Below are positions 5,350 through 60,850 of a stretch of DNA of 64,000 nt, in pieces. The DNA comes from Carcharhinus longimanus (Eukaryota). The stretch covers positions 34,596,301 to 34,660,300 of the forward strand of contig JASCQW010000098.1 of NCBI GenBank assembly GCA_030264375.1, read 5' to 3'. The notes beneath the pieces are model-generated. The model had not been told where the DNA came from. It saw nothing but the letters and a program-made list of their open reading frames with translations, and did no database searches. The translations under genes were made by a program, and so were the position numbers. Position 1 is the stretch's first letter. Each line of letters opens with the position of its first letter.

Positions 5350-5602
5350 GAACATAAGAAATAGGAGCAGGAGTAGGCCATCTAGCCCCACGAGCCTGCC
5401 CGCCATTCAATAAGATCATGGCTGATCTGAAAGTGGTTCAGTTCCACTTACCCCCTGCTCCCCATAACCCTTGATTCTCTTATTGGTCAGAAATCTATCT
5501 ACCTGTGACTTAAACATATTCAACAAGGTAGCCTCCACGGCTTCAATGGGCAGAGAATTCCAAAGATTCACTACCCTCTGAGAGAAGAAGTTCCTCCTCA
5601 AC
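5350..5602 (-). mobile_element. CR1 LINE 3' end
   Basis: LRRNFFSQRVVNLWNSLP...KGYGE; tail ttcttatgttc; runs into a gap. Confidence 0.9.
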
Positions 5603-5939
5603 NNNNNNNNNNNNNNNNNNNNNNNNNNNNNNNNNNNNNNNNNNNNNNNNNNNNNNNNNNNNNNNNNNNNNNNNNNNNNNNNNNNNNNNNNNNNNNNNNN
5701 NNCTGAAGGGCCTCTTTCTGCACTGTAGGGTTCTATGTTCTCGAGCGCTCCCTGTAGGAAACTTTGGACACCTGAATGACAATGTGTTGCAGACATCATC
5801 AGCCGCTACCTGCAAGAGACTGTTAAAGTGGAAAGAAAAAAATGACAGTGAACTTCCCAGCTGCAGGAAGAGTCAATCTTAACCTGGCGAAAGGTTGTCA
5901 TGGAGAATGAAGTGAAAATTAGTGAAGCAAAGCCTCTTG

Positions 5940-6529
5940 AGGCTCCGTTCCTGCCCCATCGCAATGTAAGACTAGTGATTCTGGAAGACACTCTCAGAGT
6001 GTGTCCTCCTCCTCCCTCCTTACGACTACTGCCCCCATACAAATGGAGGAAAATGTAAATTTCTGCCTTTCCATGGTCAGCAAAAACAGTCAAACTCCTC
6101 TGACAACTCACCACAGCGGTTCCACCAAATTTGCCTGAGCAGAGGTAAGTCAAAAGCATCTTAGTTGCAACTGTTGAATGGTCCTTGATATAGGCCCAGA
6201 CAGGGCTTAGTTTGCGTAGTAACATTGTTGTTTCAGAAGTGAATATGAAATCAGGCTCTGAGCAGAATTATTTGGAAGTACATTCATCGAGGATATGCAG
6301 CCTTCCCCTACATCACAAATACTGTCTTGATTTACCTCTGCTCAGGCGAATTTGGTAGAAGCGCTGTGGTGAGTTGTCAGAGGAGTTTGACTACTTTTGC
6401 TGACCATGGAAAGGCAGAGATTTACATTTGTATGGGGGCAGTAGTTGTAAGGGGAGAGGAGGAGGACACACTCTCAGAGTGTCTTCCAGAAGCACTAGCC
6501 TTACATTGGGTGGGGTAGGAACAGAGCCT
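5940..6529. repeat. Inverted duplication, arms 5940-6153 and 6327-6529, 173-bp spacer
   Basis: Arms are reverse complements with roughly 90% identity and one ~11-bp indel. Confidence 0.9.
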
Positions 6530-32295: not shown

Positions 32296-32814
32296 AATAA
32301 GTTTGAGGTCTTATCCTACCCAATCTCAATTTTCAGGCTGGCAAATGTTGGATATCTCAGGATGGGAAACAGAAAAAGGTAAGAAGCTCAATCTTGGGCA
32401 GGAAGGTAGGGTGGGGGGAAAGGGCACCTCCATCGGAAGCCTCTATCTGACTCAGGGAACCTCCTCACATGGACTGGATACCTCCAGATCACCCCCTTCT
32501 CTGCCTGGCATATCCCCTGATAACCCACTTGACCCCCTTGTGACCCCGAAGGGCACTCTCTTTCTTCTCCTTACCTGCCACTTACTTTCACACTGAGTCC
32601 TGACGCTTACCTCCAGGCATCGCATGGCAGTGCCTCTTCTGGTCAATTCAGCACTGTGTCTGGAGAGGCTGACAGCTCTCCAAGGTNNNNNNNNNNCTCC
32701 AAGGTGGGTACTTCCGGCAAGGGTAGCGCAGGTCCCACTTGCTGCCAATCAATTGAGTGTAAAATCATAATACGCCAGTTAGATTTCGCATCTGAAAAAA
32801 TCAAGCTCTGAAGT

Positions 32815-35345: not shown

Positions 35346-35604
35346 TACAATGGATGTTCACGTTTCAGCATGAAACACNNNNNNNNNNNNNNNNNNNNNN
35401 NNNNNNNNNNNNNNNNNNNNNNNNNNNNNNNNNNNNNNNNNNNNNNNNNNNNNNNNNNNNNNNNNNNNNNNNNNNNNNNNNNNNNNNNNNNNNNNNNNNN
35501 NNNNNNNNNNNNNNNNNNNNNNNNNNNNNNNNNNNNNCAATGGATGTTCACGTTTCAGCATGAAACACCACTGACTAATTTCCTTCTGAAGTTTTCTTTT
35601 TATT

Positions 35605-35988: not shown

Positions 35989-37575
35989 TAAAGTTGAATG
36001 AAGTTTTTCATTTGGATGATTAGGTGAAACCAAATCAGTTTTTCCTGGAGCCTAAGAAAGGAAGAGAAACTTGAGGCTGGTGAGGAGCTCCGTCATTTTG
36101 GGGCGCTGGAGTTGGAGGTGACAATGGAGGTGGAGCTATAAGTGTTCATTTCAAAATAATGAAGGGAAAACAAGAAGGAGTGTCAAACTGTGGTTCTGTT
36201 CAGATGGTGAAATGCCATCTGGAGTGACTGACATTTTTAATCTGGAATTCAATAAAGCTGTTTCAAATTCTTTGACATATTCAGACATTGCATCAAATGA
36301 CACTCTAAATAAACTGTTTACGTAAATCAAGTTTCTTGTGAAAAAAGGCTACTCTATATGCAAATTTAGACAGGTAATGTGTAATTAAGATGTAGTCTCG
36401 GGACTGTATTTTTTAATCAGTATTTGGAATGAGAGCTGCCAAGTTCAAAAATCAATTGCCTGTGCTTAAATCTGAATGTTTTCATCAATGTAAATTATGA
36501 TATAAATTGCAGTGTTTCAGGAATGAGAGCACACCCTAATCTATTCCAAAGATTTGTCAACAACCTATATGATGCACTACTGTGGAGTTATGATCATGTA
36601 TTTACTACATGTTGTATTGTTAATATAAACCTTTGGATTGTACAATGATACATTTTCAAAAGTAATTATTTGATTGTTAGATGAAAGAGTAGCAAGGGAG
36701 GGGTGGTTGTATTGAAAGGACTGTGAGTACAATTTGGAGAATCAGGAAAGGAGGATGTTTATTCTTTTCTTGCGACTTAATAATACTATGATTTGTTAAT
36801 AAGAAAATATGCTTTAATGATTACAAATGTTGCCTATTTAGCTTGACTTTACTGTTGCCCGATCAGAAGGGTGCAACAGAGAATGCTGGTTGTAACAATA
36901 CAGCTCCTCATGGATTTTCCGACGCTCTGACTCAAACAAATTAGACATAAATAGACCTTCATCTATAAGGTGCTCTGGGTTGAAGTGATTTTTTTTAGTG
37001 CTACCATTAGTTATAGAAATAGGAAAATAGATTAGCTTTAGAATTTCATAGAGATGTCAATATGAAAATGACCATTGAATCCAATCAGCGTGAATTAGTC
37101 TGCATTCCTCATATAGTTCATTGTCAAAAGTCAAAAGGGAGGAGGTTGAAGGACAGATATTACATCGCCTGTACTTGCATAGCAAGGTATCATAGGAAAG
37201 GGAGAGATTGTTTGGGTGAATGTGAATGGACCAGAGTGTCAGGGAGAGAACAGTAAGTTCAGAATATTACAAGGTGAAGATGTGATCACAAGGGGTAGAG
37301 GATGATGCATTGAATAGAGGCACTGGGGACAAGGGGCACCTTATTGCGGTTTTGGGATGGATGGGAAGTTGGGATAGAAAGGGCCTGTAACAACACCAAA
37401 AGCACGTTCAATACTCCAGGATCTGGGAATTTGGGTGGGTTCTTGGGCCCTGCCTTCTCCCAGCTTGATGACATTTGTTGGCAGTTGGAAACAGTGGTAC
37501 TAATTTCATCATTTGTACTGTCTCCATTCTTGCTCCCGCTGCAATCTCAAATCCTGCCCCAATATTGCACTTAAA

Positions 37576-37647
37576 ACATAGAACATAGAACATACAGCGC
37601 GGAACAGGCCCTTCGGCCCACAATGTTGCGCCGGCCAGTCTTGTTTT
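37576..37647 (-). mobile_element. Young CR1 3' tail
   Basis: Apparently identical to the reverse complement of 49888-49960; repeated ttctatg tail. Confidence 0.85.
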
Positions 37648-37747
37648 NNNNNNNNNNNNNNNNNNNNNNNNNNNNNNNNNNNNNNNNNNNNNNNNNNNNN
37701 NNNNNNNNNNNNNNNNNNNNNNNNNNNNNNNNNNNNNNNNNNNNNNN

Positions 37748-38016
37748 ATCGGAGTTGTGGGGGGAAGCTTCTTCATTCGGGGGGGTGGTGGGTCTCTGGA
37801 GTTCTCTGCCTGTTGATGTGGTGGAGGCTACCTCGCTAAATATATTTAGGTCACGGGTGGATGGGTTTTTGACGGACGGGGGAATTGGGGGTTGTGGGGA
37901 GAGGGCGGGAAGGTGGGGCTGATCCACTTCAGATCAGCCATGGTCTTGTTGGGTGGCAGGGCGGGCTCGGGGGGCTGGATGGCCTGCTCCTGCTCCTATT
38001 TCTTATGTTCTTATGT
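37748..38016 (+). mobile_element. CR1 LINE 3' end with dense A>G substitutions
   Basis: Aligns end to end with the reverse complement of 5350-5602; GVVGLWSSLP versus RVVNLWNSLP. Confidence 0.9.
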
Positions 38017-38195
38017 CCTGATCTCAGGTGCCAACAATATTTCCATACTCCTTGATCTCTCATCCCTTCAGCTCTATCTAAGCTGTTCTTAAACATTCAC
38101 ATTGTCACTGATTCAATCAGTAATTTGGGTAGTACATTCCATAACTTGCCTTCTTGCTTTCTTTCCTAAATTTCTAACAATTAATCTTTAATCTA

Positions 38196-38926
38196 TAAGC
38201 AGAATTTAATTCCCCTCCCTGTGGCTTGTTTGTTGGTGAGCTAGCATTAAATCAGTCAGGAGGTTGGTGTTCCTGCCCTGCTACCCATTGAGGCTTTTAA
38301 ATGGGCACTGGTTGGCTGCTTAAGGATATAATTTCACTGCCGCTGGTACTCAGCCTACAGCAAGTGAGCAACTAGCCATGAGGGAAATATGCCAAGCAAA
38401 TGGTGCCGGATCCTTGCAGGCTCCGGAGGTGGAGTATGTCATTCAAAGGCACTGTGTCTGATTGAGAGACCTGGCATCAGGAAGTTGGGGAGGGAAAGAT
38501 TTTTTAAGAGCCAATCCCCTAGTCTTGACCCTTCCCACCACTTTTCCTCCAACCCCCATCTCATGACACCCCTCTTGCCATCAGTACCACTGCCTGGGAC
38601 CCAGCAACAATTCCATTTATAAACTGGCAGAAACCAGTACCTCTGATTGACTGACAGCTGTCATTGGATAGGACTTCCATCCTGAGTTCCTTTATGCCAG
38701 GAAAAATCCACAACTGCCTAGTTAAGTGTCTGAGTGGCACTAAATTCAATGGGCCTCTGGTTTTCCAATGGTCAGACAAGATCCCTCCATTAAATCCAAC
38801 TCTATGGGTTGAATTTTCCCGTTCTGACAGCGAGAGGAATAGTAGCAGGCAAGGTGCGGACCATGGAAAGGTCCATTGACCTCAGGTGGGATTTTCCGGA
38901 GCGAATGTGGCTGAAAAATCCTGCCC
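38196..38926. mobile_element. Two adjacent Harbinger-like MITEs (about 38196-38802 and 38806-38926)
   Basis: Second has TIRs gggttgaatttt / aaaatcctgccc; first has degenerate agcagaatttaat / attaaatccaact ends. Confidence 0.6.
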
Positions 38927-42570: not shown

Positions 42571-45120
42571 ACAGTAAGAAGTCTCACAACACCAGGTTAA
42601 AGTCCAACAATTTATTTGGTAGCACAAACTTTTGGAGTGCTGCCCCTTCATCCAGTGAGTGGAGAATTGGGTTCACAAACAGGGCATGTAATTGAGTTTG
42701 TATCTATATAAGATAATGGTTGGAATGTAATCACAGGCACAAACAATGCAAACGGAGAGAGGGTTAAGCACAGGCTAAGGAGATGTGTATTGTCTCCAGC
42801 CAGGACAGTTAGTGGGATTTTGCAAGCCCAGGCAAGTTGTGGCAGTTACAGGTAGTGTGACATGAATAAAGATCCCGATTGAGGCAGTCCTCATGTGTGT
42901 GGAACTTGGATATTAGTTTCTGCTTGGCGATTCTGTGTTGTCGTGTGTCTTGAAGGCCTCCTTGGAGAATGCTTACTCAAAGATCAGAAGCTGAATGCCC
43001 TTGACTGCTGAAGTGTTCCCCGACAGGAAGGGAACGCTCCTGCCTGGTGATTGCTGAGCAGTGTCCACTCATCCATTGTCGTAAAGCCTGCATGGTCTCG
43101 CCAATGTACCATGCCTCGGGCCATCCTTTCCTACAGTGTTTCAAGTAGACAATGTTGGCCAAATCACAAGAGTATGTACTGTGTCCCTGGTTGATGGCGT
43201 TCTCATGTGGGATGATGGCATCCATGTCGAGGATCCGGCATATTTTGTAGAGCTTGCTGTGGCAGCATTGTGTGGTGTCATGGCCACTGTTCTCCTGAAG
43301 GCTGGGTAGTTTGCTGCGAACAATGATGTGTTTGAGGTTGTGCAGTTGTTTGAAGGCAATTAGTGGAGGTGTGGGGATGGCCTTGGTGAGATTTTATGTT
43401 CATCAATGACGTGTTGAGGGCTCCGAAGAAGATGTTGTTGCTTTTCTGCTCTGCGGAAATACTGGATGACAAAGGGAACTCTGTTCGCCATGTCCTGTGT
43501 TTGTCTCCTGAGGAGTTCGATGAGGTTTTATGCTGTGGTGCGTCAGAACTGTTGATCGATGAGTCGAGCGCCATATCCTGTTCTTATGAGGGCATCTTTC
43601 AGCATCTGTAGGTGTCTATTGCATTCCTCCTTATCTGAGCTGATCCTGTGTATATAGAGGGTTTGTCTATAGGGAATATCTTCTTTAACGTGTTTAGGGT
43701 GGAAACTGGAGAAATGGACCATCATGACATTATCTGTGGGCTTGCGGTACAGTGAAGTACTGAGGCGACTGTCCTTGATGAAGATATGTTATCCAAGAAT
43801 GCAACCGATTCTGGAGAGTAGTCCATGGTGAATCTACTAATGGGAAGGAACTTGTTGATGTCGTCATGTTGTATTTTCAGTGATTGTTCGGTGTGAGTCC
43901 AAAGGAAGAAAATTTCATTGATATATCTAGTGTATAAGAACATAAGAACATAAGAAATAGGAGCAGGAGTAGGCCATCTGGCCCTTCGAGCCTGCCCCGC
44001 CATTCANNNNNNNNNNNNNNNNNNNNNNNNNNNNNNNNNNNNNNNNNNNNNNNNNNNNNNNNNNNNNNNNNNNNNNNNNNNNNNNNNNNNNNNNNNNNNN
44101 NNNNNNTTCACCACCCTTTGAGTGAAGAAGTTCCTCCTCAACTCCGTTCTAAACCGCCCCCCCTTTATCTTGAGGCTGTGCCGGTTGAAGATCCTTTGCG
44201 TTGAAGATGTCTTGCTCGAACCTGTGAATGAAGATGCTGGCATATTGAGGTGCGAATTTGGTCCCCATAGCTGTTCCGTGTATCTGGATGAAGAACTGGT
44301 TTTTGAAGGTAAAGACGTTGTGGTCCAGGATGAAGCGGATGAGTTATAGAATTGTGTCTGGAGATTGGCAGTTGTCGGCATTAAGCACTGAGGCAGTTGC
44401 AGCAATGCCATCATTGTGGAGGATGCTGGTGTAGGGTGCCGAAACATCCATTGTGACGAGGAGTGTTCCTAGTTCAACTGGTCCATGGGTGCTGAGTTTC
44501 TGTAGTGTCGCTACAGAAGCTGGGAGTTCTTTGTATCATGGGTTTTAGGATGCCCTCAACATAGCCGGATAAGTTCTCATACAGGGTCCCATTGCCCTGA
44601 TAATGATGAGACGGCTGGGTTTGTTGGCCTTGTGTATCTTTGGGAGGCAGTAGAGATCTCCAATGCAGGGAGCCAAGTTCCGCACACATGAGGATGGCCT
44701 CAACCAGGATCTTGGGTTCATGTCACACTACCTGTATCCCCACGACTTGCCAGGGCTTGCAAAATCTTACTAATTGTCCAGGCTTGACACAACATGTGCT
44801 TTAACCTGTGCTTAACCGTCTCTCCACTTGCATTGTCTGTGCTTGTAAAGACTTGATTACCTGTTAAGATTTGCATTCCAAACATTATCTCGTAAACTGA
44901 GTCTGTGTGTGTATATTGTATATATATTTGTATGTTATATATACATATATGTATATTATATATAATATGCCCTGTTTGTGAACCCAATTCTCCACTCACT
45001 TGATGAAGGGGCAGCCCTCTAAAAGCTTGTGCCAACAAATAAACCTGTTGGACTTTAACCTGGTGTTGTGAGACTTCTTACTGTGCTGACCTCAGTCCAA
45101 TGCTGGCAACTCCACATCAT
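42571..45120 (-). mobile_element. Penelope-like retroelement, 5'-truncated, with inverted pLTRs and a 10-bp TSD
   Basis: GIY-YIG (NIVYLKHCRKGWPEAWYIGET...PVGEHF); RT/thumb (HFSSFHPKHVKEDIPY); 42571-42909 inverted at 44674-45085; TSD gtttatattg / gtttataatg. Confidence 0.93.
43936..44182 (-). mobile_element. CR1 3' fragment inserted in the Penelope RT
   Basis: HSLKIKGGRFRTELRRNFFTQRVV; tail ttcttatgttcttatgttctt. Confidence 0.9.
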
Positions 45121-48355: not shown

Positions 48356-50400
48356 TAAACAACCACTCATAAGAGAAGGCTCCATGAATATCTCCGTCCT
48401 CAGTGATGGCAGTGCCCATTACATCAGTACAAAACATAAAGTTGAAGCATTTGCAAAATCTTCAGCCTGAAGTGCCAAATGGATGATGCATCTCAGCCTC
48501 CTTTGGAGCATCACAGGTGTCAGTCTTTAGCCAATTTGATATAAAGAAATACCTGAAGGCACTGGATATAGCAAATGCTTTTGGCCCTGATAAGGTGCAG
48601 GTGGTAAGGTGCAGACTTATTTTCCAGAGCTAGCTGAGTCCCTAGCCAAGCTCTCCCATTATAACTATAAAACTGGCATTTACCCTGCAATATGGAATAT
48701 TGCCCTGGTATCTTCGGTCCATAAAAAGCAGGGCAATTCCAATCCAGCCAAATACTACATCATGAGTCTACTCCCAGTCATCAATAAAATGATATAAGAT
48801 ATTGTCCACAGTGTTATCAAGAAATAAATAAAATAATCTGCTCACTGATGCTCAGATTAGGTTCCAACAAAACCATTTGGCTCCTAACCTCATTACCGCC
48901 TTGGTCCAAACATAGTGAAAAGAGCAGTATTCAAGAGGAACTCAAGAGCAGAACTCAAGAGAGTGACTGCCATAGATATCAAGGAAACACTTGACCAAGT
49001 TTGGCATCAAGGAGTCGGAACAAAGTTGCAGTCATTAGGAATGAAAGGAAAAGCTCCATTGTTTGGAACCATACCTTGCACAAGGAAGGCTGTGGTTATT
49101 GGAAGCAAATCAGCTCAGCCCCAGAACATCTCTCATGGGATTCCTCAGGCCATTGTTCTAGGTGCAACTGTCTTCAGGTGCTTCATAACAAATGACCTTC
49201 CTCCATCACAAGGTCAGGATTTATGATTGCATAGTGTTCAGTACCAGTCACAATTCCTCAGACACTGAAGCAGTCTGTGTCCATTTGCAGCAAGATCTGG
49301 ACAACATTCAGTCTTGGCCTGATTAAGTAGCAAGTAAAATTTATGCCAAACAAGTACCAGAAATGACCATCTCCAACAAGCAAGAATCTAACCCTTTCCA
49401 TATTTATATTCAATGGCTTCACCATTACTGAATCCCCCATCATCAACATCCTGGAGATTGCCATTGACCAGAAATGGAAATGGACCAGCCATATAAAAAC
49501 TGTGCCTACAAGAGTGGCACAAAGCTAGGAATCTTGTGGAGAGTAACTCAGCTCCTGATTCCTCTAAGCCTGCCCACAATCTGCAAGGTACAAGTTAGAG
49601 CTGTGATAGAATATATCTACGTGTCTTGATGAGTAAAGCTGTAACAATAGTGGGCAAGGTTTTAGAAAGAATTATTAGGGATAGGATTTATAGTTATTTG
49701 GATAGTAATGAATTGATTAGAGATAGTCAGCATGGTTTTGTAGCGGGAAGGTCATGCCTTACTAACCTTATTGAGTTCTTTGNNNNNNNNNNNNNNNNNN
49801 NNNNNNNNNNNNNNNNNNNNNNNNNNNNNNNNNNNNNNNNNNNNNNNNNNNNNNNNNNNNNNNNNNNNNNNNNNNNNNNNNNNNNAAAAAACAAGACTGG
49901 CCGGCGCAACATTGTGGGCCGAAGGGCCTGTTCCGCGCTGTATGTTCTATGTTCTATGTTATGTTAATACTTAAGATGCTCTATGCCATCTAAACCAAAG
50001 CAGTCCACTTGATCAGCACACCATTCACCACCTTAAACATTCATTCCCTCCACCACCGATACATAGGCTGCAGCGTATACTATATACAAGTTGTACTGCA
50101 GCATTTCACCACGACTCCAACAACAATACCTTCCAAACTCACAATCTAAACTACCTGCAAGGACAAGGCCAGCGATCCAGGGGAATACCACCATTTGCAG
50201 TTTGCTCTCCAAACCACACACCATTCTAACTTGGAACTATTCACTGTCACGTGGTTAAAACATTTAAAATTCTCAATAATGTTGTAGTGTATCAATATCA
50301 GATGGAGCAGTTCAATATTTTAGCTCACCATGACCTTCTCAAGGACATTTAAGGTTAGGCAACAAATGTTGATGTTGCCAGTGATGTTTATATCACCAAT
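48356..50400 (+). mobile_element. Old non-LTR LINE (CR1/L2 group) with decayed RT
   Basis: GIYPAIWNIALV..VHKK..NPAKY, IDIKETLDQVWHQG, GIPQAIVLG..F..FITNDLP. Confidence 0.85.
49650..49965 (+). mobile_element. Young CR1 insertion, mostly hidden in a gap
   Basis: VGKVLERIIRDRI...SQHGFVAGRSCLTNLIEFF, gap, then repeated ttctatg tail. Confidence 0.9.
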
Positions 50401-60529: not shown

Positions 60530-60850
60530 GGGGAAACTCAGAAATCCGGATGACCGAGGGGGAGACTCAGAAATCCGGAGGACCGAGTGAGAAACTCAGA
60601 AATCCGGAGGACCGAGTGGGAAACTCAGAAATCCGGAGGACCGAGTGGGAAACTCAGAAATCCGGAGGACCGAGGGGGAAACTCAGAAATCCGGAGGACC
60701 AAGTGGGAAACTCAGAAATCCGGAGGACCGAGGGGGAGACTCAGAAATCCGGAGGACCGAGGGGGAGACTCAGAAATCCGGAGGACTGAGGGGGAGACTC
60801 AGAAATCCGGAGGGCATAGGGAGGAAATCCAGAAATCCCAAGGACATGGA
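60530..60850. repeat. 29-bp minisatellite, 10 copies plus 1 degenerate
   Basis: actcagaaatccgga recurs at 60536, 60565, 60594 and so on to 60797, with exact 29-bp spacing. Confidence 0.97.

Follow-up and report, generated by a model that had tools for sequence, protein, structure and literature searches.

The 3' end of a CR1-type LINE in the window (the whole stretch of 64,000 nucleotides analysed here) is densely changed from A to G on its sense strand, and it probably derives from a CR1 LINE RNA that was edited by ADAR and then retrotransposed into the germline. The observation made in the initial annotation of this DNA is confirmed and its interpretation is partly supported. Four further strongly changed copies were found in the assembly, two with A>G changes on the sense strand (L002 and L005) and two with T>C changes, i.e. 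A>G on the antisense strand (L162 and L214).

The hypermutated copy and its surroundings

The features discussed below are the following (window positions):
37748..38016, + strand: 3' end of a CR1-type LINE, with the ORF2 C-terminus, the 3' UTR and a tail of 8-bp repeats, assigned from the sequence (ORF2 from an ordinary copy of the family)
37749..37922, + strand: remnant of the ORF2 C-terminal frame, 57 codons and a stop, with many A>G missense changes in the translation
37760..37986, + strand: hypermutated stretch, in which 32 of the 67 majority-A columns read G and 4 substitutions are of other kinds
37987..38016, + strand: unchanged last 30 bases, 3' motif and tail
37648..37747, no strand: assembly gap of nominally 100 N
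37575..37647, - strand: tail (73 bp) that belongs to another young CR1 family and faces the edited copy head-to-head; its sequence is identical to 49888-49960
43934..44182, - strand: closest inverted copy of the same family, about 6 kb downstream, split by a gap
5350..5602, - strand: sibling copy, used for comparison in the initial annotation, with an ordinary mutation spectrum

The CR1 label was assigned from protein matches, the repeat tail and C-terminal motifs that we take to be those of CR1, and is to be read as a putative assignment as regards CR1 proper versus L2 or Rex1. The C-terminal peptide of an ordinary copy matches proteins with PF00078, many of them also with PF14529/PF03372, at up to 76% identity; these are ORF2 proteins of cartilaginous fishes, birds, turtles and frogs, those of cartilaginous fishes being the closest by identity. 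An ORF2 with an AP endonuclease and a reverse transcriptase, as in CR1-group LINEs, is thus attributed to the family through the peptide of the ordinary copy, the window copy itself retaining only the last 57 ORF2 codons. A protein search with the edited peptide as query gave 0 matches and is uninformative. CR1-group LINEs have a 3' hairpin and a tail of short repeats in place of poly-A; the 8-bp repeat tail is present in the sequence and a stem-loop is predicted in the ordinary copy.

The edited copy begins at the right edge of the gap, in which its 5' part is hidden, and the junction between its tail and the flank is matched with 0 differences by a contig of run X1 (37993-38300). In runs X2 and X7, from related species, at least 0.66-1.2 kb of other sequence lies between the flanks of window 37572-38014, and the gap would appear to conceal, or to have lost, more than its nominal size, given the orientation that we infer for the run records. 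The identical 73-bp tails at 37575-37647 and 49888-49960 lie in opposite orientation, each at a gap edge, and their length equals the apparent word size of the assembler. The sibling (window 5350-5760) also stands head-to-head with another repeat tail across a 100-N gap. A poly-G tract just 5' of 37748 (family position) is a contig-break hotspot, at which 11 of the 29 copies retrieved with the upstream region end. Elsewhere in the window, duplicated sequences flanking gaps at 35348-35568 (31 bp) and 32678-32705 (9 bp) represent assembly overlap, and positions 5940-6529, 42571-45120 and 60530-60845 hold two inverted-repeat pairs (82-93% identity) and a tandem array with a period of about 87 bp.

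Mutation spectrum

Compared with the reverse complement of the sibling, the window copy shows 32 A>G, 2 G>A and 18 other differences over 252 aligned bases, so that the initial count of about 30 A>G and about 2 G>A holds. Many of the 18 other differences are variation of the sibling itself or of the subfamily, and one of the stretches quoted initially, aataagaga>gacggggga, mixes subfamily variation with edits. The quoted peptides are present in the translations, G is the derived state as had been proposed, and the change is one-directional and confined to one strand within the copy. A column majority built from 30 other rows (29 genome copies and the sibling) gives a cleaner reference: the 4 substitutions accompanying the 32 A>G are 1 A>T, 1 C>T, 1 G>A and 1 T>C. 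An excess of T>G or C>G had been named in the initial annotation as a result that would speak against its reading; against this majority, neither change occurs in the window copy. The APOBEC signature (sense G>A) is likewise absent, with 1 change at 75 G columns. Background A>G amounts to 40/1912 (2.1%) in 57 copies not selected for G, at which rate the probability of 32 or more changes at 67 sites is about 1e-35; chance is therefore excluded for the window copy.

The G alleles are private to the copy and are not those of a shared G-rich subfamily. Indeed, a three-site G pattern is matched in the 2.68-Gb assembly by the window copy and L002 alone (2 matches), and a two-site G pattern has 28 matches genome-wide among about 60,000 tails, a number estimated from 10 tails in 404 kb. 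A two-site sense pattern has 0 matches in the neighbouring young CR1 family, and a three-site antisense pattern has 0 matches. Most of the 28 two-site matches are near chance, and four of them (L133, L137, L147 and L151) carry 3-4 further A>G (22/548 versus 40/1912 in the background, p=0.02). L133 and L147, and also L137, L151 and L025, have the aspect of lightly edited sense copies; the first two, on different backgrounds, coincide in seven A>G sites of the 3' UTR. L025 was rejected as a strong copy after its 15 A>G dropped to 8/53 against its own subfamily.

Ordinary copies retrieved with an edited query have 5.0% sense A>G versus 0.9% T>C. In the set retrieved with the upstream region the values are 20/737 versus 11/846 (p=0.047), and in another set the excess is gone (29/1525 versus 30/1849). 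The excess of ordinary copies has no ADAR context and is uncorrelated with the hyperedited sites (rho 0.03); in the first search it is largely a matter of query selection. A low-level ADAR footprint across the family was considered and rejected, the excess being weak or absent in unselected sets and devoid of ADAR context.

Other hypermutated copies

In the first search, the sense copies L002 and L005 showed 30/66 and 24/67 A>G, respectively. The mirror pattern, on the antisense strand, has 3 matches, including L162 (G000:C4785:77-665), in which 68 T>C are found at 134 T columns and in which the edits extend into the tail although the 3' junction is normal. With L162 as query, 14 of 39 hits were fetched, of which one is strongly changed (L214), one lightly (L217) and 12 are ordinary. 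L214 (G000:C150:18304321-18304806; 486 bp) has 53 T>C at 102 T columns; it is truncated at both ends, has no tail, lies mid-contig and is patchily edited toward its 3' end. The lightly changed L217 (G000:C137:43695800-43697100) has 12/67 T>C and 8/81 A>G, some of the latter, common to L162, possibly being subfamily differences. L002 and the 3' part of L162, used as queries, led to 26 and 28 non-duplicate loci, none of them a new strong copy, and the 29 copies retrieved with the upstream region include 0 strong copies.

L162 has inverted CR1 sequences on both sides, a very young element on one and an older fragment on the other. The possibility that the inverted arm beside it was edited on the same RNA was rejected, this arm being identical to 7 other copies; no unedited second placement of the L162 flank was found (best 90%). 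At L005:1433-1915, two tandem 3' fragments of different subfamilies are both A>G-rich, which suggests a single RNA, or a single insertion event with a template jump.

L162 and L214 have 33 changes in common and 36 private ones, in addition to other differences, and look like separate events with a common site preference. The sense copies look alike in this respect: in 2 of 3 pairs the same sites are changed beyond what 5' context explains (permutation p=0.013 and 0.025), and the subfamilies differ. Hyperediting appears as a rare, nearly all-or-none event, of which five strong copies were found; because edited queries were used to find them, neither this frequency nor the 3:2 ratio of sense to antisense copies is a measurement.

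Neighbour preference

Neighbours were read on the changed strand, with the five strong copies pooled. The edited fraction by 5' neighbour is 70/121 for A, 63/110 for T, 33/111 for C and 28/117 for G, an order (A/T > C > G) that matches the preference of metazoan ADAR, given as U/A > C > G with a weaker 3' preference in the accessible part of PMC9989829. The initial annotation had proposed that 5' G would be depleted and 3' G enriched. The former is borne out in the pooled data (28/117 versus 166/342, p=3e-6), with a borderline value in the window copy alone (p=0.053) and no depletion in L214 alone (8/16); the latter is seen in the window copy (12/16 versus 16/43, p=0.018) but not in the pooled data (55/129 versus 139/330, p=0.92). 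AA and AAA runs are converted en bloc, e.g. at 37780-37782. In brief, the changes bear the marks of an ADAR footprint: A>G only, one strand per molecule, clustered, and affecting up to about 50% of adenines (32/67 in the window copy, and 24-68 changes in the four other copies).

Probable genomic origin of the G bases

The G bases are likely to be real genomic DNA. The assembly is rich in gaps (76 in 400 kb), and its contigs reach about 73-76 bp into young repeats; judging by these two features, it looks like a short-read word graph. An edited path of 230-590 bp would then require many overlapping fragments with identical changes, for which miscalls or mixed-in RNA would be insufficient. An error of nanopore reads at inverted repeats, described in the accessible part of PMC7229812, was set aside, the assembly appearing to be short-read. 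An early association of edited copies with gaps (4/8 versus 0/22) was dropped once the base rate had been measured, 8 of 9 other, unselected family tails having a gap within 350 bp. The gaps nearest to L214 are 1.4 kb and 6.3 kb away, and this mid-contig antisense copy rules out a general error at gap edges. Around the edited 590 bp of L162 lie an unedited flank and, at the opposite end, 76 bp of a young family that 7 other copies of this family have in identical form.

CpG sites created by the changes have decayed in 4/24 cases, versus 2/66 unedited equivalent sites (one-sided p=0.04) and 10/354 in the background (p=0.008); ancestral CpGs of the same copies have decayed in 10/53 cases, in both directions. 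This decay suggests a long residence in methylated germline DNA, as a pooled result from four events, none of them in the window copy (0/2 new CpGs decayed).

The contigs of run X1 bear on the other side of the question. Both flanks are found there without a difference and a contig enters the tail at 37993, hence X1 carries the insertion. The run holds 0.59 of 54 sampled words, which corresponds to the 57.6% of 31-mers that are free of edits; no contig longer than 59 bp is listed on the edited stretch, and depth is zero at 37741-37771. Logan contigs are simplified by SPAdes-type heuristics, according to the part available of bioRxiv 10.1101/2024.07.30.605881, and the X1 contigs can attest that a sequence is present but not that it is absent. 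At 37818, 37919-37921 and 37970-37987 the edited path runs into words that other copies also contain, and it is thereby split into low-depth arms of less than about 130 bp that graph cleaning may delete. In the same runs, however, other copies are still represented inside the repeat by short contigs of low depth, and the lack of edited words in X1 is therefore counted as moderate evidence against real G bases.

Proposed mechanism

The preferred explanation starts from what the copy displays, namely a one-strand A>G excess that is limited to the repeat, private to the copy and ordered A/T > C > G by 5' neighbour. A LINE RNA would have paired with antisense CR1 RNA, CR1 copies being present by tens of thousands in both orientations, and ADAR would have turned A into inosine in the duplex. 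Target-primed reverse transcription would then have read inosine as G, while the 3' 30 bases, bound or engaged in priming, would have escaped editing. The edited insertion would subsequently have aged in methylated DNA, as the CpG decay pooled over copies indicates in part. The three TAT adenines in the last 30 bases are unedited in the window copy, L002 and L005, and since the window copy, as these two, is changed on the sense strand, has a normal tail and has its last 30 bases spared, retrotransposition of an edited RNA is the simplest route to it. About 3 extra bases in the first 40 bp of the window copy, near the gap, and likewise a few extra bases in L002 count against this explanation, as they are not caused by ADAR. 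Of the 4 testable copies, 2 have an inverted copy of the same family within 7 kb, where the base rate is 5/16 and gaps hide sequence; such a copy lies about 6 kb from the window copy and from L002, and none was found within 6-10 kb of L005 or L214. The inverted copy at 43934..44182 is a possible but unproven duplex partner of the edited copy.

The retrotransposition of an edited LINE mRNA, as put forward initially, agrees with the sense-strand changes of the window copy, L002 and L005. The changes are not always on the sense strand, and with two of the five strong copies (L162 and L214) being antisense, this route cannot be the whole process. Antisense copies require the copying of antisense RNA, an edited host transcript overwriting an existing copy, or the action of ADAR on the cDNA strand of an RNA:DNA hybrid. 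Copying of an antisense RNA from the duplex is plausible for the tail-less L214, and deamination of the cDNA strand in a hybrid might account for the normal 3' junction of L162. In vitro, the DNA strand of long matched hybrids is edited by full-length ADAR2 (PMC5389660, in its accessible part), and ADAR editing of retroviral RNA:DNA hybrids is called unknown as to its occurrence in the available text of a review (PMC12925331). That ADAR leaves two heritable footprints in a vertebrate LINE, A>G through RNA before reverse transcription and T>C through the cDNA in the long RNA:DNA hybrid of target-primed insertion, is offered as a tentative extension of low probability; if true, L162 would be a case of natural germline DNA adenine editing by ADAR.

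Alternative explanations

An artefact of sequencing, library preparation or assembly is rather unlikely. The true allele would then be an ordinary young copy, and the G-rich path would consist of miscalls or RNA-derived reads at a contig end; edited words are indeed missing from the X1 contigs, the three sense copies all begin at a gap, the small insertions lie close to the gap edge, and same-type mismatch clusters can be technical (PMC2873906, as far as its text was available). However, L214 lies inside a contig and L162 has correct sequence on both sides, the occurrence of both strands leaves no tie to the direction of gaps, the change comes without an excess of T>G or C>G, 5' G is depleted rather than enriched, the new CpGs show decay, and Logan contig cleaning may remove the short arms of the edited path. 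The absence of edited words from X1, which has the insertion, would also be expected if editing had followed insertion, the edited allele then being possibly polymorphic. In this unlikely scenario, a host transcript would have been edited by ADAR and written back by RNA-templated repair or cDNA gene conversion, or ADAR would have acted on R-loop DNA, so that the strand would follow host transcription. It would cover sense and antisense copies alike, both A>G-rich tandem fragments of L005 in spite of their different subfamilies, and the tail edits of L162. On the other hand, decay at the new CpGs is about equal to that at ancestral ones, which suggests similar ages for the edits and the insertions, editing has spared the final 30 bases of each of the three sense copies, L005 and L214 lack an inverted partner within the 6-10 kb covered, and no host exon was found at candidate ORFs (0 Pfam hits in 150 of 367 ORFs).

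An origin without ADAR is given very little weight. It would involve either another adenine deaminase or a burst of wobble errors in which the reverse transcriptase, short of balanced nucleotides, inserts G for A, first-strand synthesis producing the T>C copies and second-strand synthesis the A>G copies; both strand types with a normal 3' junction and the lack of 3' G enrichment agree with it, whereas the en bloc conversion of AA and AAA (5' A edited 70/121) demands the extension of consecutive mismatches, the 5' order matches ADAR, and independent copies show the same site preferences. Hardly credible is a G-rich subfamily or an overall drift toward sense A>G in the CR1 family: the excess of A>G over T>C in copies retrieved with the edited query and in the upstream-region set points in this direction, but the counts of three-site and two-site matches among so many tails, together with the unselected sets, in which the excess is weak or absent, lacks ADAR context and does not follow the hyperedited sites, largely refute it.

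Significance

If the preferred explanation, ADAR editing of a CR1 RNA before its retrotransposition, is real, the window copy is a fossil record of A-to-I editing that reached the germline through a non-LTR retrotransposon, in contrast with L1 cell assays, in which no editing was found. From genomes only, the timing and number of ADAR attacks on LINEs could then be established, much as is possible with APOBEC footprints for endogenous retroviruses, and with the antisense copies one can test whether ADAR acts in vivo on the DNA strand of the RNA:DNA hybrids of retroelements. The effect of A>G hyperedited copies on genome evolution is probably small, as the event is rare, with five strong copies found.

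Comparison with known systems

In the literature searched, which covered few subscription papers, no paper describing genomic LINE copies hyperedited from A to G was found; a 2026 survey of the CR1 group is without the words ADAR or hypermutation (PMC13343379). In human cell assays, no editing of L1 RNA was found and the restriction of L1 by ADAR1 is editing-independent, according to the accessible part of PMC5224506, which counts against the reading of the window copy as an ADAR-edited LINE RNA.

The closest likeness is with retroviral proviruses. ADAR-type A>G stretches are recorded in the proviral DNA of HTLV-2/STLV-3, of RAV-1 and ALV (PMC12925331) and of BLV, in its 3' LTR (PMC8025556), as given in the available parts of both papers; there, as in the window copy, about 50% of adenines become G in a bounded stretch of integrated retroelement DNA, and the change is attributed to ADAR acting on RNA before reverse transcription. 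Unlike these proviruses, CR1 is a non-LTR LINE with target-primed insertion, its changes are read from a genome assembly and not from infected cells, and mirror-image antisense copies occur. With APOBEC DNA editing of endogenous retroviruses, the CR1 case shares clustered, one-directional, strand-biased deaminase footprints fixed in vertebrate retroelements. However, the vertebrate screen of Knisbacher and Levanon concerns LTR elements and G>A (PMC4866542, the portion available, in whose main text the word ADAR is not found), whereas in the CR1 case a LINE has undergone A>G changes, on one strand or the other. Metazoan A-to-I hyperediting, as described in the accessible text of PMC9989829, likewise targets young repeats, favours 5' U/A and disfavours 5' G, and affects both strands of sense-antisense duplexes, as here, but it remains in RNA, whereas the CR1 change sits in a DNA assembly. 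Finally, the hybrid editing by ADAR in the part seen of PMC5389660 concerns model substrates.
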